Of a DNA stretch of 64,000 nt, positions 5,834 through 18,943 are shown piece by piece. Origin of the DNA: an uncultured Chloroflexia bacterium (GTDB lineage Bacteria; Chloroflexota; Limnocylindria; Limnocylindrales; CSP1-4). The stretch spans positions 50,489 through 114,488 of the forward strand of contig CAVORL010000006.1 of NCBI GenBank assembly GCA_963698595.1. The letters are read 5' to 3'. Position 1 is the first letter of the stretch, and every line of letters starts with the position of its first letter. Below the pieces are notes generated by a model. The model was not told the DNA's origin. It did no database searches and saw only the letters and a list, made by a program, of their open reading frames with translations. Both the position numbers and the translations under genes were made by a program.

Positions 5834-5921
5834 ACATCACCTCTCGCGCCACGCGTGATCGGGCCATGATCGGGCTTCCCGAGCGTTGTCGCAGGGTTGG
5901 TGCGTCACTCCCTGGAACCGG

Positions 5922-6056
5922 CTGCTCGCCACGGCCGTCAGCGGTGTGCATCGCCAGCAGGTCAGCGGCAATCGACCGCGTCCAGGTGGCGGCGGCGATC
6001 TCGGCCGTGGAGCTGTGGCGACTGGCGTAGGCAACGAGCACGCAGGGCGGGCGCAT
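5922..6056 (-). pseudogene. Possible remnant of a flavodoxin-domain gene (N-terminal ~45 codons only)
   Basis: MRPPCVLVAYASRHSSTAEIAAA... resembles the start of flavodoxin-domain proteins. GC3 bias decays after about 45 codons and the frame runs into the neighbouring gene. Confidence 0.3.
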
Positions 6057-6190
6057 CGGGGCTCCTGCCGGGCGGTCCTGGATGGACAGCATGCAGCCCC
6101 GGATCGTGGACCGGCAGAGGCCTCCGGCCCGCGCCCCGCGGGCCGTCCCGACGCTTCTTGGCGGACGCTAGGCTTCGCGACGGAGGTTGC

Positions 6191-7132
6191 ATGACCGGGT
6201 CCCGCGCCGCCCCGCCACTCCTGCTCGTCGCCGCGGGCGCGTCGCGACTCGGCGACGCGGCACGACGCGGGCCATTGGTCGCCGCGGCGGCCGAGGCGAT
6301 CCGTGCCCGGACCGGCGTCGCCCCCGACGTGCAGGTCGCCGTCTCTGCGGGCGCCGGACGGGCGGCCGCGACCGAAGCCGTGGCCGCCGGCGCGCCGCTG
6401 ATCGTCGTCGCCGGCGGCGACGGGAGCGTCCGGGTCGTCGCGAGCGTTGTGGCCGGCACCGGCACTGCGCTCGGGATCGTCCCGGGCGGCACCGGCAACC
6501 TCCTCGCGGCGGCGCTCGGCATCCCCCGCCGGCCTGCCCGCGCCACAGCCGCGCTCGCCACCGCCCGCGAGCGTCGGATCGACCTCGGCCGGGCGTGGCT
6601 CGGCCCCGATCGCGAGCTGCACGTTCCATTCATCGTCGCGGCCGGCGTCGGCTTCGACGCCCGGGTGATGGCGGCGACGACGGAGCGCCGCAAGCGCCGG
6701 CTGGGGATCGCCGCGTACTTCGCCACGGCGACCGCCGTCGCGGCGCGGATCCGGCCGTTCGACGTTCGCCTGATCGTCGACGGTGTCGTTCATGAGACGG
6801 ACGCCCTTGCCGTCCTCGTCGCGAATGCCGGCGAGCTCGTCCCCGGGCTTCTCCGGCCGCGCCTGCCGCTCGTCCCCGACGACGGGGTGTTCGACGTGCT
6901 GGTGGCTCGCGGCCGCGGGGCGGTGGGGGGCTCGCGCGCGGCGCTCGAGCTCCTGCTTGGTCGAGGGATCCACACGGCCATCGGCCCGTATGGCGCCAGG
7001 TTCGTCGCCCGCCGCGTCGAGATCGTGGCGGCCCACGGCGAGCTCGTCGAGGTCGACGGTGACGTCCTCGGCGCGACGCACCTTGCGGCCGAGGTGGACC
7101 CGGGCGCCCTCCGCGTCCTCGTACCCGCCTGA
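6191..7132 (+). CDS. Diacylglycerol/lipid kinase family protein (YegS/BmrU-like)
   Basis: LIVVAGGDGSV and GIVPGGTGNLLA motifs of the DAGK catalytic domain. ATG at 6191. Confidence 0.85.
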   Translation: MTGSRAAPPLLLVAAGASRLGDAARRGPLVAAAAEAIRARTGVAPDVQVAVSAGAGRAAATEAVAAGAPLIVVAGGDGSVRVVASVVAGTGTALGIVPGGTGNLLAAALGIPRRPARATAALATARERRIDLGRAWLGPDRELHVPFIVAAGVGFDARVMAATTERRKRRLGIAAYFATATAVAARIRPFDVRLIVDGVVHETDALAVLVANAGELVPGLLRPRLPLVPDDGVFDVLVARGRGAVGGSRAALELLLGRGIHTAIGPYGARFVARRVEIVAAHGELVEVDGDVLGATHLAAEVDPGALRVLVPA

Positions 7133-7196
7133 CCCGCGCGCCCCGGCCGGCGACGGCCGGCGAGGTGGGACGCCGCCGCGCGCTACCATCCTGACG

Positions 7197-7775
7197 ATGT
7201 CATCCCCACCACTCCCCGCCAGCCTGCCGTTCACCGGTGACCCGGAGGCGGACGCTCTCCTCGCCGCCGATCCGCTCGCTCTCCTCATCGGGTTCGCGCT
7301 CGACCAGCAGGTGACCGTCCAGAAGGCCTTCGCCGGCCCCCTGGAGCTGCGCCGTCGGATCGGCACGCTCGATCCCGCGGCAATCGCCGCGATCGAACCG
7401 GAAGCCCTCGAGGAGGCCTTCCGCGAGCGTCCGGCGCTTCACCGCTTCCCGGCCGCCATGGCGACCCGTGTCCAGGAGCTGTGTGCCGTCGTGGCGCGCG
7501 AGTTCGACGGGGATGCCGCGCGCGCCTGGAGCGATGCCCGCGACGGCGCCGACCTCGAGGCGCGGCTGCGCTCCCTGCCCGGGATCGGCACGCTGAAGGC
7601 GGCGACGCTCGTCGGGCTGCTTGCGAAGCAGTTCGGCGTTCGGCCGCCCGGCTGGGAGGCGGTCGCGCCGTCGTACCCGACCCTGGCCGACGTCGACTCG
7701 GCCGAGGCGCTTGCCCGCTACCAGGAGCAGAAGCGCGCCTGGAAGGCGAGCCAACGGGCAGCGAAGGGCGACTAG
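7197..7775 (+). CDS. HhH-GPD-type base-excision DNA repair family protein
   Basis: LLIGFALDQQV..., helix-hairpin-helix LPGIGTLKAATLVGLL. ATG 7197 is in frame within the longer track ORF. Confidence 0.65.
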   Translation: MSSPPLPASLPFTGDPEADALLAADPLALLIGFALDQQVTVQKAFAGPLELRRRIGTLDPAAIAAIEPEALEEAFRERPALHRFPAAMATRVQELCAVVAREFDGDAARAWSDARDGADLEARLRSLPGIGTLKAATLVGLLAKQFGVRPPGWEAVAPSYPTLADVDSAEALARYQEQKRAWKASQRAAKGD

Positions 7776-8275
7776 GACTCCCGCGCGGGAGCAGGTGCCG
7801 AGCCCGCGACTCCGGCGGCGTTCGTGGACCGCGCCGGCACGCGGGCCGCGTGGACGGCGTCGAAGGCCAGCAGGAACGCGCCCTGGACGATGGTGGCGAG
7901 GCCGTGCCCGCAGGCCGTCGGGCTGCGTCGGCCCCTCCCGGCCGCCACCGCAAGCCCGGTCGCGATATAGGCGACGTCGAGCCCCGCGTTGACCGCGAGC
8001 ACGCGCCGCGTGCGGGCCGCTTCACGGGCGAGGTCATCCGGGTCGACGGGCGGATGTGCGATCAGCCGCGCCGCCCGTGCTCGTCCTGCGACGGCGAGGC
8101 CGGCGTCGATCGCGCCCCACCCGATCGTCTGGGAGCCGAATGCCCGGAGGAAGGGGTTCCCGGTGGCCGCGCCGGCGACGGCCAGCGCGGCCCCTCCGGC
8201 AACGCTGGCCAGGGCCCAGGTGAGCAGGCGGCGAGCGAGGCGAGCCTGGAAGGCGTAGGGCTCGACGGGGGTCAT
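7772..8275 (-). CDS. Hypothetical membrane protein
   Basis: 167-aa ORF with several hydrophobic helices and good GC3. No recognisable catalytic motif. Confidence 0.5.
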   Translation of the reverse strand: MTPVEPYAFQARLARRLLTWALASVAGGAALAVAGAATGNPFLRAFGSQTIGWGAIDAGLAVAGRARAARLIAHPPVDPDDLAREAARTRRVLAVNAGLDVAYIATGLAVAAGRGRRSPTACGHGLATIVQGAFLLAFDAVHAARVPARSTNAAGVAGSAPAPARES

Positions 8276-8373
8276 GATGCCCCGTCCCGCCCGGACGCTC
8301 CAGCGCCTCGCCCCATGAGCCGGCGAACGGGCATCGCCAGGCGGCGCCGAACGATCTCGCGGCCGCTCACGCG

Positions 8374-9045
8374 CTACTCGGTTCCGGAGCCGGCCCCCTG
8401 GAAGCTCCGGATGGCGTCCTGGGCCGTGTTCACGCGCGGATCGCTCGCGTCGGCAAGGCGGACGAACGCCTCGAGCGCCGGAACGGCTTCGTCGGGACGC
8501 TCGAGCCGGGTGCAGGCGGTGGCACGGTTCCAGTGCGCGATTGCCTCCGAGTCATCGACGGCGAGCGCCGCGTCAGAATCGGCCAGGGCGCGCTCGAGGA
8601 GGGCGGTGCGCGCCTCGCGAGACGGTTCCGACTCCGAGAGGCGAAGCAGCGCTCCGCCACGATTGCAGAGTGCCATCGAGTAGCCGGGGTCGATCTCGAG
8701 CGCCTGTCCGTACGCCTCGACGGCGAGGGCATCCGACGTCGGCTCGCAGGCCCGGCCGAGGTTGAATGCCGCGTCTCGCACCAGCCGCCGGTCGGCGCTG
8801 GAGCGGATCACCGCGGCAAAGTCGGGCTTCGCCCGCTCCAGCTCGCCCAGCTCCGCGTAGCACAGCCCCCGGTGGTACAGCGTCTCCGTTCCGCCCGGTC
8901 GCACTTCCAGGTCCAGGTTGAAGAAGCTCAACGCCCGCCCCAGGTTGCCCCGCGAGTACTCGTTCATCCCTCGCGAGTACTCGGTCGCCCCCCGCGTATG
9001 GAAGTTCTCGTCCTCCTTCTCCGCCGACTTCTTCCACCACGGCAT
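8374..9045 (-). CDS. Tetratricopeptide (TPR) repeat protein
   Basis: Repeated A/Y/G-patterned 34-residue units (LYHRGLCYAELGELERAKPDF, ALEIDPGYSMALCNRG, AIAHWNRATACTRLERPDEA). Confidence 0.75.
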   Translation of the reverse strand: MPWWKKSAEKEDENFHTRGATEYSRGMNEYSRGNLGRALSFFNLDLEVRPGGTETLYHRGLCYAELGELERAKPDFAAVIRSSADRRLVRDAAFNLGRACEPTSDALAVEAYGQALEIDPGYSMALCNRGGALLRLSESEPSREARTALLERALADSDAALAVDDSEAIAHWNRATACTRLERPDEAVPALEAFVRLADASDPRVNTAQDAIRSFQGAGSGTE

Positions 9046-9096
9046 CAGGGCTTCCTCCAGTCGTGCATCCGCGCGATGGTACGACGGATAGCGGTC

Positions 9097-9112
9097 GGCC
9101 TCCCGGGAGGCC
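9097..9112 (-). terminator. Perfect 16-bp palindrome ggcctcccgggaggcc downstream of the msrA cassette array
   Basis: Perfect inverted repeat between msrA-end copy A and the TPR gene start. No U-tract, so terminator function is tentative. Confidence 0.3.
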
Positions 9113-9158
9113 CGACGATGTGTGCAACAACGGTCAGCGTGGGACCTCGGGGTCGCGG

Positions 9159-9247
9159 CCCAGCCCGACCGGGCAGGCCACGCCCGTCCCGTGGTCCGGG
9201 CAGTAGCCGTTCGGGTTCCTTGCTGGCGAATGTCCGACTGATCGGTC
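9159..9247 (-). repeat. msrA 3'-end copy A (displaced pseudo-3' end)
   Basis: 9159-9218 is 60/60 identical to 10327-10386, which lies inside msrA. 9219-9247 is about 72 percent identical (21/29) to the flank of copy B. It would encode ...[29 protein letters not shown]. Confidence 0.9.
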
Positions 9248-9278
9248 CTGAGGTCCGGGCCTCGACTCAGCGGCGCCG

Positions 9279-9707
9279 CTAGGGCTGGGCCTCGAGGACC
9301 TGCTTGAGTTTCGCGAAGTCAGTTTCGTACTGCTTCCGTCCGGTGCCGGCGATGAGCGGCCAGAGCAGACGGCTGAACCCGGTCGGTTCGGCCGTGATCT
9401 CGACCCGCGTGCCCCCTGGGACCGTCGCGAAGTCGTACGCAGCCGTGAACGGGACGGGTTTGGTGACCTTGAAGGCGAACCGTCGGTCAGGTTCCCAGGC
9501 GGTCACCGTCCAGGCTGTCGTGACACGCCGGCCCATGGAGGATCGCACCTCCTCACCCGTCGAGCCCACGCCGATCGGCCCATCGGAGGTCACCTTCGCC
9601 TCGATCAGGCCTTGTTGCCAGAGGGTTTCGTTCTCCAGTCTGGCCAGGAATGCGAAGACCTCCTCGACCGGCCGATCAATGATGACGCTCTGCGCGAATC
9701 TCGCCAT
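9279..9707 (-). CDS. SRPBCC (START/polyketide cyclase-dehydrase-like) family protein; cassette 1
   Basis: 142 aa with the typical SRPBCC start (MARFAQSVIIDRPVEEVFAFL...). G-rich RBS, and a candidate -10 CATAAT at 9783-9788 (minus strand). Confidence 0.8.
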   Translation of the reverse strand: MARFAQSVIIDRPVEEVFAFLARLENETLWQQGLIEAKVTSDGPIGVGSTGEEVRSSMGRRVTTAWTVTAWEPDRRFAFKVTKPVPFTAAYDFATVPGGTRVEITAEPTGFSRLLWPLIAGTGRKQYETDFAKLKQVLEAQP

Positions 9708-9848
9708 GGCCCCTCGCCCCCCCTCGCTTGGGCCGCGAGGTCGTGCTTCGCTGCACGTGATCTAGCGGCTCAAACCTGCGGCATTATGCGCCGAAACCGG
9801 GAGCGCGAGGATCGACACGAACGATGTCCGCGAGCCTCGATCCCCCCA

Positions 9849-9931
9849 CCGACCGGGCAGGCCACGCCCGTCCCGTGGTCCGGGCAGTAGCCGTTCGGGT
9901 TCCTCGCGGACGAAGGTATGACTGATCGACC
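9849..9931 (-). repeat. msrA 3'-end copy B (displaced pseudo-3' end)
   Basis: 9849-9902 is 54/54 identical to the matching part of copies A and C. The flank 9903-9931 is related to the flank of copy A (shared GACTGATCG). Confidence 0.9.
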
Positions 9932-9938
9932 GCGGGCT

Positions 9939-10295
9939 TCAGGTCGCCAGTTCGGCCGCCTCTCGAAGCCAGTCGACCACCTGGTCATCGACATCGTTGA
10001 CGCCCTGGATCTCCAGGTGGTGCATCCAGTGCTTCGGTGATGGGTGGACGATCTCCTTGAACCGCTGCGACTCAGCGCGCCGGCCGAGTGCGAACGAGAG
10101 GACCACGTCCGCTCCGGGATGCTTGAGGTATTGCCCAGGGACCCAGAGATAGGCGAAGCCGCGCAAGCGATGGAAGGCAACTTGGCTCTTCGATGTGCGG
10201 ACCTCGACCGGTCCAAGGGCCTCGAGCGCCGAGTGGACACGCTCGAAGACCGCAAGGGCGACCGGATTGCCGGCGAGCAGCTCCTCGGGTTCCAC
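9939..10295 (-). CDS. DUF5655-like small protein; cassette 2
   Basis: 118-aa ORF starting at a GTG 9 nt after the msrA stop. Resembles DUF5655 (VEVRTSKSQVAFHRLRGFAYLW). Family call is from memory. Confidence 0.65.
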   Translation of the reverse strand: MEPEELLAGNPVALAVFERVHSALEALGPVEVRTSKSQVAFHRLRGFAYLWVPGQYLKHPGADVVLSFALGRRAESQRFKEIVHPSPKHWMHHLEIQGVNDVDDQVVDWLREAAELAT

Positions 10296-10304
10296 CAGCC
10301 AAGT

Positions 10305-10985
10305 CTAGTCGGCAGCGGATCGCACTCCCAGCCCGACCGGGCAGGCCACGCCCGTCCCGTGGTCCGGGCAGTAGCCGTTCGGGTTCTTGTCGAGGTACTG
10401 CTGGTGGTAGTCCTCGGCGTAGTAGAAGGGGGTCGCGTCGGCGATCTCCGTCGTGATCGCCCCGTGGCCGGCCGCCGTCAGGCTCGCCTGGTACGCGTCG
10501 CGTGAGGCTGCGGCCGTCGCGCGCTGTCCGGCGTCGAAGACCTGGATCACGGAGCGGTACTGGGTCCCGCGGTCATTGCCCTGGCGCATCCCCTGGGTGG
10601 GGTCGTGATGCTCCCAGAAGACGCGGAGCAGCTCGGCGTAGGTGACGAGCGCCGGGTCGAAGACGACGCGGACCACCTCCGCGTGGCCGGTCCGCCCCGA
10701 GCAGACCTCCTCGTAGGTGGGATTCGGGGTGAAGCCGCCGGCGTAGCCGACGGAGCTCGAGATCACGCCAGGCGTCTGCCAGAAGGTCTTCTCGGCGCCC
10801 CAGAAGCAGCCCAGGCCAAAGACGGCCTCCTGCGCGCCGTCGGGGAGCGGGCCGGCGAGCGGCGTGCCAAGGACCGTGTGCCGGTCCGGGACGGCCATCG
10901 GCTCGTCCCGCCCGGGAAGGGCGTCGGCGGGGGAGGGGAGGGTCTGCTTGGTGTTGTCGGCGAACAGGATGTCGAGGATGCCCAA
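10305..10985 (-). CDS. msrA: Peptide-methionine (S)-S-oxide reductase MsrA
   Basis: [10 protein letters not shown] active site, [51 protein letters not shown] start at 10985 with GGAG 7 nt upstream aligns with the E. coli MsrA N-terminus (SPADALPGR). Confidence 0.9.
10327..10386 (-). repeat. msrA 3'-end copy C (the functional end of msrA)
   Basis: Encodes [20 protein letters not shown] inside msrA. Identical to copy A over 60 bp and to copy B over 54 bp. Confidence 0.9.
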
Positions 10986-11307: not shown

Positions 11308-11508
11308 TCAGTCGAAGTCGAAGATCCCGCGGCCGGCAGAGAACTGCAGCACGAGCCCGCAGCCCTTGCAGATCCTCAGCACGAGCTTGTGGCTCGTGAT
11401 GCCCCAGCGCGAGTCCATGCGGCCCTTCTGCTGGTCGAACTGGGTCCCGCCGCAGAGCGGGCACTTCAGCACGGGCCGGGCGGCCTCCTCGGCGCGTTCC
11501 CAGGTCAT
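11308..11508 (-). CDS. Small zinc-ribbon protein (66 aa, two CxxC pairs)
   Basis: MTWERAEE...KCPLCGGTQF...ICKGCGLV. Strong AAGGAG RBS before ATG 11508. Confidence 0.65.
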   Translation of the reverse strand: MTWERAEEAARPVLKCPLCGGTQFDQQKGRMDSRWGITSHKLVLRICKGCGLVLQFSAGRGIFDFD

Positions 11509-11542
11509 GTCCAGCTCCTTCCCGCACCGAGGCGAGGTTGTC

Positions 11543-11974
11543 TCACGGGTGCTCGTCCCCAGGCGATGCCACCGGGACGACGAGCGTGGCGAAGAGGTGG
11601 TCCAGCATCGCCGCCGGGTCTGCCGTGAGGCCAGTGTGCGCCTCCGACGGCTGGATGATCGTCGACGAGGGCGCCACGAGCCAGTGATAGCGCTCCGGCT
11701 GCGCAAGGGCGGCGATCGGCCCTCCGGCCGGGTTGCCGGCCGCGATCTTCTCGATCGCGTCGAGGTGCGACCAGACGTCCGCCGGGCAGCAGGTTGGGTC
11801 AAGGGCCTGAAGGCGCGCCTCGTCGAGGGCGACGCGCGCCCCGAGGAACCGCTTCGGCCGGCAGAGCAGGACGATCCCGGCGTTCATCGATTCGCCGCGG
11901 TCGACGCGCGGCACGACGCGCACGATGGCGTACGCGAAGGGGTGGAGCGCGGGATCAGGCGCCGGTGCGGGCAC
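11543..11974 (-). CDS. DUF3037 domain protein
   Basis: FAYAIVRVVPRVDRGESMNAGIVLLC... resembles DUF3037. The GTG 11974 start is tentative and overlaps the upstream kinase gene by 20 nt. Confidence 0.65.
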   Translation of the reverse strand: MPAPAPDPALHPFAYAIVRVVPRVDRGESMNAGIVLLCRPKRFLGARVALDEARLQALDPTCCPADVWSHLDAIEKIAAGNPAGGPIAALAQPERYHWLVAPSSTIIQPSEAHTGLTADPAAMLDHLFATLVVPVASPGDEHP

Positions 11975-12743
11975 GCTCTGCCTCCTCCACGAATGCCCGC
12001 GGGGCATCCAGCCGTGCCCGCAGGTAGTCGACGTAGGCCCGTCGATTGTCCGCCACCGAGGCGAAGGTCGGATCCCCGTCGAGCCACGCGTCGGGGACGG
12101 CGTCGACAAGCTGGCCCAGGAGGTCGTCGCTGACGAGCGGCGCGAGGCGGGCATCGGCCTCCTCGATCGAGCCGGCGAACGGCAGCAGCACGTGGTCGCG
12201 GACCTGCGGGAACGGGCGCGAGGAATGCGCCGGATCGCGGGTCGCGTCGGCCCAGCGGTGGTGCACGTACAGCGCTGCGCCGTGGTCGATCCCGTGGAGC
12301 CGGCGGTGCCAGACGAGAAGGTTCGGATTGCGCGGTGTCCGGTCGACATTGAGCGTGAGCGCGTCGAGCCACACGAAGGCGGCAGCGAGCTCGGGATCCG
12401 GCGCGGGCCCGACCGCGGGCGCGAAACCGAGTGCCCCCGGCAGGAAGTCGACGCCGAGGTTGGTCCCCGGGGATCGATCCAGGAGCTCCTTCACCTCCCA
12501 GTGGGGCTCACCGGCCGCGAAACGCGAGTCGAGCTCGACGAGCACCTGCTCGGGCACGGGCAGGCCCAGCGCCCGGGCCAGCTCGCCGACGATCACCTCG
12601 GCGACGAGCGCCTTGGGGCCCTGGCCTGCGCCATGGAACTTGACGACGTAGAGGCCGTCGTCGTCCGCCTCGCACAGGCCGGGGAGGGAGCCGCCTTCGC
12701 GGAACGGCGTGACGTAGCGAGTCGCGGTGACGGTCCGAAGCAT
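11955..12743 (-). CDS. HipA-like (HipA-family) serine/threonine kinase, short form
   Basis: GGSLPGL...YVVKFHG, catalytic-loop-like LTLNVDRTPRNPNLL and HGIDHGAAL. 262 aa, without the HipA N-terminal domains. Confidence 0.7.
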   Translation of the reverse strand: MLRTVTATRYVTPFREGGSLPGLCEADDDGLYVVKFHGAGQGPKALVAEVIVGELARALGLPVPEQVLVELDSRFAAGEPHWEVKELLDRSPGTNLGVDFLPGALGFAPAVGPAPDPELAAAFVWLDALTLNVDRTPRNPNLLVWHRRLHGIDHGAALYVHHRWADATRDPAHSSRPFPQVRDHVLLPFAGSIEEADARLAPLVSDDLLGQLVDAVPDAWLDGDPTFASVADNRRAYVDYLRARLDAPRAFVEEAERARTGA

Positions 12744-12817
12744 CGGGTGGAGTGTACGGGCCGACTCCGTCGGGAGTGTCCCCGCGGGGCCGCGGGGCCG
12801 CGGGACGTGACCCCGCC

Positions 12818-14005
12818 TCAACCCTTCACCACGCCCAGCGGGGCCAGGCGGCGGACCGGCCGGACCAGGTCGGCCGAGGCCGCCATCACCGCCTCGATGT
12901 CCTTGTAGGCGAACCCGCCCTCCTCGGCAACGGCGCGCCGATCGCCGGCCAGCAGGACGATGCCCGCGGCACACATGGCGTCGAGGACGGTCGCCGGCGC
13001 TCGCGCCTTCCGGGCCGCCGTCCGGCTCATCGCGCGGCCCGCCCCGTGCTGGCAGGTCTCGAACGCGGCGGCGTTCCCGAGCCCGACGCCGACGTAGGAG
13101 GCGGTCTCCATGCTGCCCGGCACGAGCACCGGCTCGCCGGCTCGGGCGCGGACGGCGCCCTTGCGATGGACGAACCCCGTCCGCGGTGTGCCGGCCACGA
13201 CATGTGTCTCGCGGGCAGCGTCGTTGTGGTGGATGTCGACCGTGCGCGCGAAACGGCCGATGCGGGTGTGCGCCCCGAAGGCCCGCTCGACGGCGTCGAG
13301 CATCCGCGAGCGGTTCACCTCGGCAAACCGCCGGGCGTACGTCATGGAGGCCCAGTAGGCCTCGAACTCGGGAGAGCCCTCCCGCAGGTAGGCAAGCTCG
13401 CGGTGGGGGAGCGGGTCGCCGCGCGCGAGGTTGCCGGCCAGGGCCCGCCGCTGGAACGCGTCGCAGATCGCCTTGCCCAGGCTCCGCGAGCCGGAGTGGA
13501 GCATCACGCAGACCTGCCCGTCGGCGTCTCGCTGGACTTCGACGAAGTGATTCCCGGATCCCAGCGTGCCCAGCTGGTCGATCCCCCGCGCCCACCATGC
13601 GGGCTCGATCGAGGGCGGCCGCTCGAGGCCGATCTCCAGCTCGGCGCGCCCGTGGTCGACGGGCCGCGGCTGGCTCCTCGTCCCGGTCGGCACCGCCCCC
13701 TCGATCGCCTCGAGCACCGCCCGCAGGCCGCGCCGTCCCAGGGAGGCGACCGTGAGGTCGGTCTCGGCGAGGGAGACTCCGCAGCCGATGTCGACGCCGA
13801 TCGCGTACGGGACGACCGCGGCCTCGGCGAAGAGGACGCCGCCGATCGGCATCCCGTAGCCGGCGTGGACGTCCGGCATGAGTGCCACGTGGTCGATGGC
13901 GAACGGCAGCCGTGCGAGATTGATTGCCTGGTCCAGCGCCGAGGGCTCGACAGCGGGAGCCCATGAATGGATGGGCACGCCGCCGGGGACCGGGATCACC
14001 TGCAT
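12818..14005 (-). CDS. rtcB: RNA 3'-phosphate splicing ligase RtcB
   Basis: MPDVHAGYGMPIGG, GVDIGCG, LGSGNHFVEVQ, HSGSRSLG, CQHGAGR, GGFAYKD. ATG at 14005. Confidence 0.9.
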   Translation of the reverse strand: MQVIPVPGGVPIHSWAPAVEPSALDQAINLARLPFAIDHVALMPDVHAGYGMPIGGVLFAEAAVVPYAIGVDIGCGVSLAETDLTVASLGRRGLRAVLEAIEGAVPTGTRSQPRPVDHGRAELEIGLERPPSIEPAWWARGIDQLGTLGSGNHFVEVQRDADGQVCVMLHSGSRSLGKAICDAFQRRALAGNLARGDPLPHRELAYLREGSPEFEAYWASMTYARRFAEVNRSRMLDAVERAFGAHTRIGRFARTVDIHHNDAARETHVVAGTPRTGFVHRKGAVRARAGEPVLVPGSMETASYVGVGLGNAAAFETCQHGAGRAMSRTAARKARAPATVLDAMCAAGIVLLAGDRRAVAEEGGFAYKDIEAVMAASADLVRPVRRLAPLGVVKG

Positions 14006-15460: not shown

Positions 15461-18400
15461 TCAGCTGCAGCCGCTCGTGGAGCCGCAGTTGAGGCACTTG
15501 TAGCAGCTGCCGTTGCGGACCATGATCGAGCCGCAGTCCATGCAGGACGGGGCGTCCTCCTGGATCGTGAAGGCGGTCCGTTCCGCGCCCAGCGAGGCTG
15601 CCACCGCGCTCGCGGCGGTCGTCCTCCCGTTTCCGTTGCCGTTGGCGTGGCCGTTCTTCGCCGGCTTCACGACGGTCACGTCGATCCTGCCGCTCGGTGC
15701 CGGCGGCTCGGCCTTTGCGGGGGCGGTGGCAACCGCCGTGGCCCTGGGGGCCGGGGGCTCCGCCGAGGCGTCGACCGCGGGGGGCGCGGTCGCCTCATCG
15801 ACTGCCAGCGGACCCTCCTCCGCCTCGGGGGCGTAGGCCGTGGCCGGGCTGCCGAAGGCGAACGGGGCGGCCGGGACGATGTTGCCGCGGTCCTGGATCC
15901 CCAGCGCGGCACGCTCGTCGCCGCCCAGGAAGCGGCTGCCGAGCCAGCGGAAGATGTAGTCCACGACGGACTTCGCGATCGGGATCTCGCTGTTCCCGGT
16001 GAACCCCGACGGCTCGAAGCGGACGTGGGCGAACTTGTTCACCAGGTCCCGCAGCGGCACGCCGTACTGGAGGGCGAGGCTGATCGCGGTGGCGACGGTG
16101 TCCATGAGTCCGGAGACCGTGGACCCCTCCTTGGCCATCTTGAGGAAGATCTCGCCCGGCTGGCCGTCGGGGTAGAGGCCGACGGTGATGTATCCCTCGT
16201 GGCCGGAGATCTCGAACTTGTGGGTCACCGCGGTCCGCTCGGCCGGGAGCCGGTGGCGATGCGGCTTGACCGCCTCCTCCTGGGCCACGGAGAGCTGCTT
16301 CCGGAGCTCCGCCACGAGCTCGCTCGCCTCCTTCGTCTCGTCGTCCGTCTTGAGCCTGCTGGTGCTGAGCGGCTGGCTTCGCTTGCTGTTGTCGCGGTAG
16401 ATCGCGATCGCCTTGAGACCGAGCCGCCAGCCCTCCAGGTAGATCTGCTCGATCTCCTCGACCGTCGCCGTCTCCGGCATGTTGACCGTCTTGCTGATGG
16501 CACCCGAGAGGAACGGCTGGACCGCCGCCATCATCCGGACGTGGCCCATCGGCAGGATGGAGCGGGTGCCGTTGCGCGGCTTGAAGGCGCAGTCGAAGAC
16601 GCTGAGGTGCCCGGGCCGGAGGCCCGGCGCCCCCTCGATCGTCTCGCGCTCATCGATGAAGGCCACGATCTCCTCGACCTGGGTCGAGGTGTACCCGAGC
16701 TCGCGGAGGGCGCCCGGGACCGTGTTGTTGACGATCTTGAGGTAGCCCTCGCCGACGAGCTTCTTGTACTTGACGAGCGCGATGTCGGGCTCTATGCCCG
16801 TGGTGTCGCAGTCCATCATGAACGCGATCGTGCCCGTCGGGGCCAGCAGGGTGGTCTGCGCGTTGCGGTAGCCGTGCTGCTCGCCGAGCTCATAGGTCTC
16901 GTGCCACAGCTCGCGGGCCGTGGCCAGGAGCGGGGCGGGGACCGCGTCGGAGGGGATCCCGCGGGCCGCGTCGCGGTGCATGCCGATCACGTGCATGAAC
17001 GGCTCGCGGTTCTTCTCGAACTCGATGAAGGGGCCGCCGTGGTCACGGGCGATGACGGCGCTCTGGCGGTACGCCTCGGCGGTCATGATCGAGGTGAGGG
17101 CGGCGGCGTAGGCCTGACCCTCCGGCGAGTCGTAGGCGAGGCCGCGGCTCATGAGGAGCGCGCCGAGGTTGGCGTAGCCGAGACCCAGCGGCCGGAAGCG
17201 GTGGCTGTTCTCCTCGATCTTCGGCGTCGGGTAGCTCGCGTTGTCGACGAGGATCTCCTGCGCGGTGATCGTCACGCGGCAGGCATGCCGGTAGGCGTCG
17301 ATGTCGAGCTCGCCGTCCTCGCCCACGAACTTCATGAGGTTGACCGACGCCAGGTTGCAGGAGGTGTCGTTCAGGAAGCTGAACTCGGAGCACGGGTTGG
17401 TCGCGTACTGGCGATCCGAGGCGGAGACCGGGTTCCACGCGTTGATCGTGGTGTCGTACTGGATGCCGGGATCGCCGCAGACATGGGCGGCCTCCGCCAT
17501 GCGGCGGAAGATCTCGCGGGCGTGGTGGGTGTCCATTGGCGCCCCGCCGACGACTGCGTGGGTGGTCCACTCGCCGTCGGTCTCGACGGCGCGCATGAAC
17601 TCGTCGGTCACGCGGACGGAGTGGTTCGCGTTCTGGAAGAAGACGCTGGCGTAGGCCTCGCCGGTGAACGACGGGTCATAGCCCTGCTCGATGAGGGCCC
17701 ATGCCTTCTGCTCCTCGAGCTTCTTGCTGTCGATGAAGTCGAGGATGTCGGGATGGCCCGCGTCGAGGATCACCATCTTCGCCGCGCGGCGGGTCTTGCC
17801 GCCCGACTTGACGACGCCCGCGAAGGAGTCGTAGCCCTTCATGAAGCTGACGGGTCCGGACGCCGTCCCGCCACCGGCCATCTTCTCGCGCGAGGAACGG
17901 ATCGGGGAGAGGTTGGAGCCGGCACCGGAGCCGAACTTGAAGAGCATCGCCTCGGTCTTCGCGAGGTCCATGATGCTGCTCATCGAGTCCTGCACGGAGT
18001 TGATGAAGCACGCCGAGCACTGCGGCTTGGCCTCGATCCCGACGTTGAACCAGACCGGCGAGTTGAAGCTCATCTTCTGGTTCACGAGGAGGTGCGTCAG
18101 CTCGGCGGTGAAGGCCTCGAGATCGTCGCGCGTCGCGAAGTAGCGCTGGGTCTCCGCCCAGGCCGCGATCGCGAGGACCACCCGGTCGATGAGCTGGCGG
18201 ACGCTCGTCTCCCGCTCGGGCGTGTTGAGGTGGCCCCGGAAGTACTTGCTGACGACGACGTTCGTCGCGAGCTGGCTCCAGGCGGCCGGGACCTCCACGT
18301 CCTTCTGCTCGAAGACGAGCTTGCCGGACTCGTTCCCGATCGCCGCGGTCCGGATCTCCCACAAGGTCTCGTCGTAGGGGTGGACGCCGGGCCGGGTCCA

Positions 18401-18658
18401 GAGCCGCTCGAAGGTGAGCCCGCGGTTGCCCTCCCCGGTGAAGCGGAGGGCGGCCATGGCGGCCGCAGAGGCCTCATCCGCGCGCGCTCGGATGGCCGCG
18501 GCATCGGCGAAGGCGGCCTCGGTCCGCGCCGTGACGGCCTCGGCGCTCCCGTGCGGCACGCCGGCGGCGCGCGCCGCGCCGGACGCGGCCTTGCGGGCCT
18601 TGGCGGGCTTGGCGTCCTGGGGGAAGACGGGGACGACGTCGTGGACGACTCGGGCCAT
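15461..18658 (-). CDS. nrdJ: Adenosylcobalamin-dependent (class II) ribonucleotide reductase NrdJ
   Basis: 1065 aa. TNPCSEF catalytic Cys region, Ala/Pro-rich linker and C-terminal Cys4 ribbon (CMDCGS...CYKCLNCGS). ATG 18658 is preceded by GGAAGAGGAG. Confidence 0.92.
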   Translation of the reverse strand: MARVVHDVVPVFPQDAKPAKARKAASGAARAAGVPHGSAEAVTARTEAAFADAAAIRARADEASAAAMAALRFTGEGNRGLTFERLWTRPGVHPYDETLWEIRTAAIGNESGKLVFEQKDVEVPAAWSQLATNVVVSKYFRGHLNTPERETSVRQLIDRVVLAIAAWAETQRYFATRDDLEAFTAELTHLLVNQKMSFNSPVWFNVGIEAKPQCSACFINSVQDSMSSIMDLAKTEAMLFKFGSGAGSNLSPIRSSREKMAGGGTASGPVSFMKGYDSFAGVVKSGGKTRRAAKMVILDAGHPDILDFIDSKKLEEQKAWALIEQGYDPSFTGEAYASVFFQNANHSVRVTDEFMRAVETDGEWTTHAVVGGAPMDTHHAREIFRRMAEAAHVCGDPGIQYDTTINAWNPVSASDRQYATNPCSEFSFLNDTSCNLASVNLMKFVGEDGELDIDAYRHACRVTITAQEILVDNASYPTPKIEENSHRFRPLGLGYANLGALLMSRGLAYDSPEGQAYAAALTSIMTAEAYRQSAVIARDHGGPFIEFEKNREPFMHVIGMHRDAARGIPSDAVPAPLLATARELWHETYELGEQHGYRNAQTTLLAPTGTIAFMMDCDTTGIEPDIALVKYKKLVGEGYLKIVNNTVPGALRELGYTSTQVEEIVAFIDERETIEGAPGLRPGHLSVFDCAFKPRNGTRSILPMGHVRMMAAVQPFLSGAISKTVNMPETATVEEIEQIYLEGWRLGLKAIAIYRDNSKRSQPLSTSRLKTDDETKEASELVAELRKQLSVAQEEAVKPHRHRLPAERTAVTHKFEISGHEGYITVGLYPDGQPGEIFLKMAKEGSTVSGLMDTVATAISLALQYGVPLRDLVNKFAHVRFEPSGFTGNSEIPIAKSVVDYIFRWLGSRFLGGDERAALGIQDRGNIVPAAPFAFGSPATAYAPEAEEGPLAVDEATAPPAVDASAEPPAPRATAVATAPAKAEPPAPSGRIDVTVVKPAKNGHANGNGNGRTTAASAVAASLGAERTAFTIQEDAPSCMDCGSIMVRNGSCYKCLNCGSTSGCS

Positions 18659-18943
18659 GCTGCGTGTGCTCCTCTTCCGGGAGGGCGGCTCGCCGCCCTG
18701 GTCCCGGTCCCTGCCCGCGGCGCGACGCGCGCCGCCCTGCTCGTGGCGGTCCGCCCGCCCCTCCATCCGCGTGCTCCTCCCGTCCGACGAGCCGGGCGTG
18801 GGCCCAATTCACCGGTTCGGTGCACCTGCGCCCCTGTCGCTCCCACGCGATCCGCGGCGCGGCGGTTGCCCCGCCAGGCGTTCCCCCGACCCTCCGCCGA
18901 AGGTCCCCGACAAGGGCCTGTCCGTCCGGAAGGCGGTCCCAGA

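Follow-up and report, generated by a model that had tools for sequence, protein, structure and literature searches.

What places several copies of the coding end of one conserved gene behind that gene, all on the same strand and with other small genes between them? The msrA locus of an uncultured Chloroflexia bacterium (contig CAVORL010000006.1) raises this question. In a 64-kb stretch of this contig, called the window below and meaning all 64,000 nucleotides analyzed, two single-gene cassettes lie between three copies of the last ∼60 bp of msrA, the gene for peptide methionine sulfoxide reductase. A sequence-only reading of the window had proposed that elements integrated repeatedly into the msrA 3′ end and that each brought a replacement end, a central idea that our comparisons with other genomes support. 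The explanation we favor, with a probability of about 0.55, is serial site-specific integration at a single point of msrA, AAG-AA|CCC, by a recombinase acting in trans.

An exact string match placed the 53-nt core AACCCGAACGGCTACTGCCCGGACCACGGGACGGGCGTGGCCTGCCCGGTCGG (AACCCGAACGG...CCCGGTCGG) at exactly three positions in the window, 9165-9217, 9849-9901, and 10333-10385, all on the minus strand, where 0 occurrences are expected by chance (100 shuffles). In their full extent, copy A (9159-9218) and copy C (10327-10386) are identical at 60/60 nt, and copy B (9849-9902) matches both at 54/54, in agreement with the copy number, identities, and common strand given by the sequence-only reading. The core is the sole long direct repeat found within the 64 kb. 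It contains CCGGGCAG twice and a CCACG/CGTGG inverted repeat; these internal repeats, the gene order, the 9-nt gap behind msrA, and a palindrome behind copy A had all been described before and were borne out by the sequence and by Pfam. The G+C content is 63-67% across the two cassettes and 72-78% in their flanks. Open reading frames (ORFs) were picked by G+C at third codon positions in this 73% G+C sequence, and the gene calls are imperfect. The features of the locus, read from msrA outward, are as follows.

10305-10985, minus strand: msrA (peptide methionine sulfoxide reductase), the platform gene; PF01625, E = 7e-63
10333-10386, minus strand: copy C, the core within the working msrA end; identity with copy A spans 10327-10386
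9903-10326, minus strand: cassette 1, made up of msrA tail, 9-nt spacer, DUF5655 ORF, and left arm
10305-10326, minus strand: msrA tail of cassette 1, VRSAAD*
9939-10295, minus strand: DUF5655 ORF (PF18899)
9903-9927, minus strand: left arm of cassette 1, GATCAGTCATACCTTCGTCCGCGAG
9849-9902, minus strand: copy B, a pseudo-end core, 54/54 identical to copies A and C
9219-9848, minus strand: cassette 2, made up of tail, 5′ region, SRPBCC ORF, and left arm
9708-9848, minus strand: tail of cassette 2, ...GGGATCGAGGCTC (G-I-E-A), with the 5′ region
9279-9707, minus strand: SRPBCC/Polyketide_cyc2 ORF (PF10604)
9219-9243, minus strand: left arm of cassette 2, GATCAGTCGGACATTCGCCAGCAAG
9159-9218, minus strand: copy A, the distal pseudo-end, 60/60 identical to copy C
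9097-9112, no strand: perfect 16-bp palindrome GGCCTCCCGGGAGGCC behind the copy A stop codon
7772-9045, minus strand: remainder of the islet between msrA and the conserved flank, with a TPR gene (8374-9045) and a DUF6992 gene (7772-8275) and no pseudo-end behind them
7150-7775, plus strand: convergent HhH-GPD-like gene, conserved, at which the variable region ends on the right (tblastn shows synteny with L001 and L002, and the gene order of L088 and L110 agrees)
5897-7132: DAGK_cat gene, beyond the HhH-GPD-like gene

The msrA call encodes 226 amino acids (100% identical to protein P0001), and the GTG start of the DUF5655 ORF lies 9 nt past its stop codon. To the left of copies A and B, the 26-nt flanks are ∼77% alike (20/26) with GACTGATCG common to both, and they bear only a loose likeness to msrA at the corresponding position. 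Copy A is probably an earlier working msrA end, as its sequence suggests: the tail, GLGRDPEVPR*, which runs to 9134, is similar to those of the relatives P0007 and P0010 (...APEG*). The palindrome behind it may be the old msrA terminator hairpin; a scan with a terminator consensus gave no match at this position, and a T run is absent. An Rfam family for the repeat was rejected, as the search returned only a chance NEAT1 match (E = 0.39).

Cassettes behind msrA in other genomes

The nearest MsrA proteins are 81-90% identical to that of the window and all come from uncultured Chloroflexota. Neither cassette protein was present in an exact-match protein index, which implies that the source species is otherwise unsampled. 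The earlier reading had named an arrangement fixed among relatives as evidence against integration. Instead, what follows msrA differs from genome to genome. In L088/L089 (MsrA 86% identical), the site is empty, and the msrA stop codon is followed by 44 nt, the convergent HhH-GPD gene, DAGK_cat, and a flavodoxin gene, so that window positions 7776-10304 (DUF6992, TPR, SRPBCC, and DUF5655) are extra. The TPR and DUF6992 genes are thus missing at the L088 empty site; DUF6992 adjoins HhH-GPD in L110 as well, where five other genes are also present at this spot. L083-86 carry a DUF2750 gene and a gene for a secreted protein. L001, the closest species representative, holds a 3.2-kb islet behind msrA (6594-9765) in which a pseudo-end is not detectable; variation behind msrA does not always carry the repeat signature. 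By eye, the L001 islet contains GYD-like, ABM-like, and OsmC-like ORFs, together with a 417-aa ORF.

Both cassettes of the window occur in other genomes, from soil and groundwater bacteria, some of which hold larger arrays behind msrA. The DUF5655 cassette recurs behind msrA in L090 (87% amino acid identity), L097 (81%), L099 (80%), and, as a more distant homolog, L107. Its left side consists in every case of an msrA-type tail, a 9-10-nt spacer (ACTYGR...), and a GTG start. On the right side, the arm SGWTCAGTCGTMCMTYCGCSCGYGGAC and then a further msrA-like end follow in L090, L097, and L099. L107 has the tail and the ORF, but there the cassette closes the array with no arm after it. DUF5655 is the first cassette in the window and in L097 and the last in L099 and L107, where it lies 2.4 kb and 8.4 kb behind msrA, respectively. 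Similarly, the SRPBCC cassette recurs immediately behind msrA in L100-104 (84% amino acid identity) with its G-I-E-A tail GGGATCGAGGCTC and a ...CCSGCAAGG arm, and in L105 (78%), where arm and pseudo-end follow. It is second in the window and first in L100. Since tail, ORF, and arm recur as sets, the cassette unit is tail-gene-arm, and the core between units is the shared part. Here the sequence-only reading requires amendment: integration stands, but the core is not the unit, which consists of msrA tail, gene, and ∼26-nt arm, with the 54-60-nt core as the shared recombination region. Nor are the flanks of copies A and B a decayed msrA end, as had been thought; they are a conserved arm carried by unrelated cassettes in several genomes and not a product of local decay.

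The core and both cassettes, wherever they were found outside the window, always stood behind msrA or a pseudo-end (L081, L090, L097, L099, L100, L105, and L107/8). Between the window and L097, MsrA is 64% identical in amino acids and 74.7% in nucleotides, and the DUF5655 gene is 81% and 86.3% identical. Between the window and L100, the corresponding values are 62% and 71% for MsrA and 84% and 82.7% for SRPBCC. Genomes with MsrA 81-88% identical to the window's lack both cassettes. That cassette genes are far more alike than MsrA, and sit at the same few msrA nucleotides, points to horizontal movement with site specificity; these figures are among the results by which the integration idea withstood each of the refuting outcomes that the earlier reading had listed. 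Cassette polymorphism, for which that reading had asked, was found between L107 and L108, near-identical strains on long contigs that differ by one replaced cassette. Identity between the two is 95.6% as far as the first pseudo-end extends and 99.1% from inside the second pseudo-end on, and the interval between these breakpoints, which fall in repeats, measures 0.5 kb in one strain and 1.6 kb with two genes in the other.

Could the window array instead have arisen in place, by local tandem duplication of the msrA end followed by vertical, fixed inheritance, or as an assembly artefact joining strain variants at a shared k-mer? Short perfect repeats are possible under either. Each repeat, however, has a unique non-msrA left arm, so that real molecules contain arm and core, and the repeat lengths of 54 and 60 nt fit no single k. 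The architecture is present in many independent assemblies, including contigs of 230-584 kb, and short-read and long-read assemblies agree on it, contrary to the artefact that the sequence-only reading had allowed for. Distant genomes have the cassettes, and close relatives lack them. We give this explanation hardly any credence and regard local duplication and assembly artefact as excluded.

To survey displaced ends, we ran an nhmmer DNA profile of msrA 3′ ends over all fetched loci; this profile was required because a regex/k-mer screen and a blastn-short self-match screen missed most duplicated ends. We found about 24 extra msrA ends in 14 independent loci (a count that includes one decayed copy in L097, identified by eye), all on the msrA strand and downstream of msrA. 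There are two each in the window, L083-86, L090, L099, and L100-104, one each in L018, L026, L056, L058, L081, L105, and L110, and six, spread over 9 kb, in L107/L108. Four of the 14 loci come from a set of 80 species representatives of many phyla, and three (L026, L056, and L058) belong to Actinomycetota, namely Rhizohabitans and two Pseudonocardiaceae. Counted as cassettes, the arrays hold two in the window, at least six in L107, and at least two each in L083, L100, and L099; in L083, L099, and L100, which are older arrays, the cores have diverged. A metagenome scan with a 32-mer of the window core returned only two contigs, L081 and L082.

Two sets of loci bear on what pseudo-ends once were. 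In L107, five pseudo-ends all encode TGVKLPDDFVVTPLQYVD*, and 10/10 variable sites in 57 nt are synonymous, the choice of stop codon included, where random changes would be synonymous in ∼25% of cases (P about 8e-7). This implies that selection maintained the MsrA terminus while the copies diverged, and that they are not the decayed products of a local duplication. The working msrA of L018 and of L081 has taken on a foreign end of lower G+C, and the native high-GC end lies behind one inserted gene; the displaced native end of L081 is 47/48 identical to the window core. As judged from these sequences, each pseudo-end would once have served as a working msrA end, which matches the prediction of serial displacement. 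Taken together, comparison of the assembled genomes shows how the cassettes are built, that they move between genomes, that they do so with site specificity, and that older ends are displaced serially.

Some of these loci have features of their own. The working msrA end of L107 (∼1620-1650) carries a 1-nt frameshift relative to L108 (...CCAGACCACGGACGGGCGTG...), which reflects either an error of long-read assembly or the inactivation of msrA in this strain. In L056, a Pseudonocardiaceae metagenome-assembled genome, a 35-aa HepT-like toxin fragment lies behind msrA (6673-6780; Pfam E = 8.5e-4) and is followed by a low-GC pseudo-end, YHQ*YLHHNKNGYCGLGGTGVCL (6799-6865). We take this terminus to be typical of Gammaproteobacteria, which would suggest a cross-phylum donor. 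A by-eye reading of the L026 insert as a methyltransferase was dropped, as the tested frame had no Pfam match. The cargo of the longer arrays (L100 6001-10165; L107 2200-10357) consists mostly of small ligand-binding or detoxification-type proteins, including SnoaL, glyoxalase, DinB, DLH, pterin-4a dehydratase, YecM, META, and DUF1269, plus a guanylate cyclase, and in this it resembles typical integron cassette content.

The msrA junction and how cassettes may enter it

All pseudo-ends lose their good match to msrA at AAG-AA|CCC, which corresponds to K|NP of ...YHQQYLDK|NPNGYC..., and the working msrA of L018 and L081 changes to its foreign end at exactly this point. An imperfect dyad, GCAGTA-N22-TACTGC, surrounds it, and the inferred crossover dinucleotide AA (10384-10385) lies within 1 nt of the dyad centre. 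Read in this way, post hoc, the junction yields one further feature of the window.

10368-10401, minus strand: proposed attB-like site within msrA, the imperfect dyad GCAGTA-N22-TACTGC

The arms fall into two families. Family 1, AGTCGTACMTTCGCCCG, is common to the unrelated cassettes DUF5655, DUF2750, SRPBCC, and SnoaL, and family 2 (...GCTGACCTGTCTGAG; ...CAGCAGTAGGCTGACCTGTCTGAG) occurs in L083, L107/8, and L110. Both look like diverged HQQYL-coding sequence with 5-6 extra nucleotides: in another post hoc reading, CAGNNGTA stands 20 nt from the junction in msrA and 25-26 nt from it in both arm families. Large serine recombinases act on att sites that form an imperfect dyad of ∼40 bp around a non-palindromic crossover dinucleotide, and the half-sites of attP lie ∼5 bp further out than those of attB. 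As a lead only, and by analogy, the msrA junction recalls attB and the arms recall attP half-sites of such systems.

On the reading we favor, small mobile cassettes would insert successively at one fixed position close to the msrA 3′ terminus, where AAG-AA meets CCC. Each would carry a replacement msrA end (core, tail, and stop codon), one gene, and a ∼26-nt arm. Upon insertion, the incoming end would fuse to msrA and keep the enzyme intact, and the previous end would be displaced downstream, left behind the arm of the cassette as a pseudo-end. Repeated insertion would stack cassettes with the newest adjoining msrA. For the window, the most likely history would begin with the original end (copy A), to which the SRPBCC cassette and then the DUF5655 cassette were added; the perfect identity of its three cores would reflect recent exchange or gene conversion. 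We infer both the exact point of strand exchange and a site-specific recombinase, which would be encoded elsewhere and act on "arm + core" sites and on the msrA site. Excision is expected to leave recognizable products: a circle of the DUF5655 cassette would read ...GATCAGTCATACCTTCGTCCGCGAGG + core + AGTGCGATCCGCTGCCGACTAG..., a circle of the SRPBCC cassette ...GATCAGTCGGACATTCGCCAGCAAGG + core + TGGGGGGATCGAGGCTC..., and the deletion products msrA + core + SRPBCC tail or msrA + core + CCGCGACCCCGAGG.

Several results weigh against this reading. Among ORFs that span the entire window, and within the limits of the imperfect gene calls, a Pfam scan detected housekeeping genes only and no domain of a recombinase or transposase, so that the earlier statement that no integrase or transposase lies nearby holds across the 64 kb. 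Precomputed and new Pfam results for the related islets likewise contain no recombinase, and five tblastn seeds (XerD and the integrases of phiC31, Bxb1, L5, and lambda) matched nothing at E ≤ 0.05 in the 1.1 Mb of related loci, although a search with five seeds is of limited sensitivity and the sampling is limited as well. Unlike the units of ordinary accretion arrays, 0 of the ∼24 cassette units carry an integrase. In the assembled sequence, no circular form or excision product was seen. The arm of the DUF5655 cassette is 66-83% identical between genomes, which does not exceed the identity at third codon positions (76-86%), and so does not point directly to selection on the arm. In copy C, the core is of host type and the tail of cassette type, a mix that a crossover at the left junction alone does not predict and that calls for later gene conversion or a second crossover point. 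Lastly, the right-hand breakpoint between L107 and L108 falls within the core, where homologous recombination would be expected to place it.

The copy C mix, the breakpoint within the core, and the near-neutral arms keep RecA-driven exchange as the main rival, which we consider unlikely but of real weight. In this account, homologous recombination alone moves, shuffles, and deletes end-gene-arm blocks by means of portable homology arms: the nearly invariant coding block of msrA and the pseudo-end behind each cassette form a homology-arm pair, and the arms are what decay has left of an ancient duplication or two, passed on with each cassette and evolving at about the neutral rate. Such exchange would account for the stretch of about 45 nt across the junction in which the window and L097 have a single mismatch, although their msrA genes are only 75% identical overall, and for the perfect identity of the 54-60-nt cores in the window. 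The cores are also alike within one genome and differ between genomes that hold the same cassette, which is the pattern of concerted evolution, and the failure of the searches of the window and related loci to find a recombinase fits as well. However, two arm families and the single insertions of L018 and L081 break at the same nucleotides, where homology-limited crossovers should scatter, and in L018 and L081 the sequences that meet at the junction resemble each other too little for RecA to act on, unless the complete structure was already in place in the donor. Homologous recombination also has no means of joining one and the same arm to genes that are unrelated, and hence of making new cassettes, and 54 nt is close to the shortest length on which RecA works efficiently.

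Alternatively, the cassettes could be debris, left when ordinary integrase-bearing islands or prophages, integrated one after another at the msrA 3′ end, lost the integrase and most of the cargo by deletion and were reduced to one gene between att repeats. Decay of this kind is the standard origin of integrase-less accretion units (PMC3146451) and has a parallel in tycheposon remnants, and some units are larger: one in L058 measures 2.8 kb, and one in L099 spans 2.4 kb and holds five genes. We nonetheless judge this origin improbable. The ∼24 cassette units hold neither an integrase nor a recognizable fragment of one, and independent deletions would not reproduce the same tail, 9-10-nt spacer, and DUF5655 ORF in five genomes, with the same arm in four. 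Moreover, viral contigs, phages, and plasmids showed no relevant match to the msrA ends. Scans of viral contigs with the core, a degenerate core, the arm, and two other types of msrA end gave nothing relevant, and the complete array had no blastn match among plasmids and phages; a phage, plasmid, or provirus parent was therefore rejected. What remained from the viral scans was L106, one chance match in a low-GC ORF, and L116, where a provirus borders on a host msrA; the ORF behind this gene looks by eye like ComM/YifB, and there is no integrase.

Comparison with known cassette and accretion systems

The sequence-only reading could assign the array to no described system. That view is too strict, since there is precedent in integrase-less accretion arrays, whose architecture matches that of the msrA arrays, the closest described case also being from Chloroflexota. 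A second example of accretion with integrase-less units, set at the 3′ end of fda in Streptococcus thermophilus, is provided by ICESt1/CIME (CIME, cis-mobilizable element). The ssrA islands of Dehalococcoides, the closest case, consist of tandem units between 20-bp repeats of the ssrA 3′ end (McMurdie et al. 2011, PMC3146451), with a 15-bp conserved motif that does not match ssrA to the left of each repeat (PMC3146451) and a serine recombinase in 16/31 units and absent from 15 (PMC3146451). The islands and the msrA arrays have in common tandem units behind one conserved gene, bounded by direct repeats of its 3′ end in the same orientation, a conserved non-gene motif that abuts each repeat on the element side, and many units without an integrase. 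They differ in the target, which is 20 bp of a transfer-messenger RNA gene in Dehalococcoides and a protein-coding end with a full working replacement of ∼60-90 nt in the msrA arrays; in size, at ∼10 kb per island against mostly single-gene units of 0.5-0.7 kb; and in integrase content, where none among the ∼24 units found stands against 16/31.

The earlier label of integron-like holds in part. Like integrons, the sedentary chromosomal type among them, and clusters of attC sites lacking integron-integrases (CALINs), the msrA arrays consist of small, mostly single-gene cassettes split by a repeated site of ∼85 nt, with entry next to a fixed platform. As in integrons, the repeats are homogeneous within a genome, the same cassettes occur in different order between genomes, and the cargo consists of small binding or detoxification-type proteins and DUFs. 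However, the msrA arrays have no intI next to the platform (within the 64-kb window), no R/L box layout, and no attC-like hairpin (z about 0): single-strand DNA folds of arm and core on both strands gave z from -0.56 to +0.21 against shuffles, and an attC-like structure was rejected. They further differ in that the platform is the coding end of a housekeeping gene, so that each cassette must supply a functional gene end, and in that some cassette genes lie on the opposite strand. The features that stand are thus small single-ORF cassettes shared in varied order, and those that do not are the attC fold and an adjacent intI.

Tycheposons (Hackl et al., bioRxiv 2020.12.28.424599) and additive tRNA islands such as fGI-2 of Methylophilaceae (PMC10872708) are kilobase elements with tRNA targets. 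With the msrA arrays they share successive integrations at the same site that push older material distally and scattered partial 3′ ends of the target, but their elements carry tyrosine recombinases and replication genes.

Polymorphic toxin loci (cdiA-CT/cdiI and rhs) keep orphan C-terminal modules, displaced 3′ fragments that are each followed by a small gene. These fragments too are arrayed downstream and retain a piece of conserved upstream sequence. An orphan array of this type was rejected for the msrA arrays, as the displaced ends encode the conserved MsrA terminus, not alternative toxin domains, and the cargo (SRPBCC, DUF5655, DUF2750, and SnoaL) includes no immunity genes. Xer-dependent modules (pdif modules and integrative mobile elements exploiting Xer, IMEX) are bordered by a 28-bp dif-like site made up of a XerC arm, a 6-bp spacer, and a XerD arm. 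They were rejected as well: in a comparison by eye with the dif consensus, neither the junction nor the core showed the layout of such a site, and the repeats are in direct orientation with lengths of 54-90 nt. At 9778-9792, on the minus strand of the SRPBCC cassette 5′ region, GGCGCATAATGCCGC resembles GGTGCGCATAA, the arm of dif to which XerC binds; behind it there is no XerD arm to match, and the likeness is probably due to chance.

A protein-coding platform, a selected functional spare end on each cassette, single-gene units, and the absence of any recombinase-bearing member among those found set the msrA arrays apart from the systems compared. The literature we searched contained no description of msrA as an integration site or of msrA-end cassette arrays. 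We put forward tentatively, as a possibility somewhat short of probable, that the arrays represent a distinct and so far undescribed gene-capture system with the msrA coding 3′ end as its platform, widespread in soil and groundwater Chloroflexota and present in Actinomycetota. Its cassettes would be mobile, free-standing single-gene units and not decayed islands, each with a selected spare end, and would be moved by a dedicated distant recombinase or by host recombination alone.

Among systems that accumulate stores of single-gene cassettes, integrons alone are, to our knowledge, well understood, and Actinomycetota and most Chloroflexota have few integrons or none. If the msrA arrays are an independent cassette-stacking system, they would add a new path for genes to move through abundant soil lineages of high G+C that are among the least tractable bacteria, and every insertion would repair the conserved enzyme gene that it hits. 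In practical terms, extra msrA ends on the msrA strand offer a signature for flexible genes in metagenomes, and about 35-85 bp of defined target are available for a recombinase hunt; the enzyme could serve genome engineering. If RecA alone is sufficient, a conserved coding block would act as a portable homology arm for transfer between distant taxa.

Other genes around the array

Within the TPR gene, a 21-nt tandem duplication (8948-8989; 81% identity) repeats an ...EYSRG... motif near the N-terminus. The genes upstream of msrA vary among genomes and include AF_2407, DJ-1, NUDIX, LemA, and trypsin. In the window, a minus-strand block at 11308-13964 encodes a HipA_2 kinase, DUF3037, and a small AF_2407-like zinc-ribbon protein; this block, which also lies upstream of msrA in the relatives L084 and L110, could be a toxin-antitoxin-like or signalling module. 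Further out, two phosphofructokinase genes (PF00365; 1-570 and 14182-15318) lie 14 kb apart, and a class II (B12-dependent) ribonucleotide reductase is encoded at 15461-18808, the same enzyme being found upstream of msrA in L110. The phosphofructokinase and ribonucleotide reductase genes are ordinary core genome and confirm the chromosomal context of the array.

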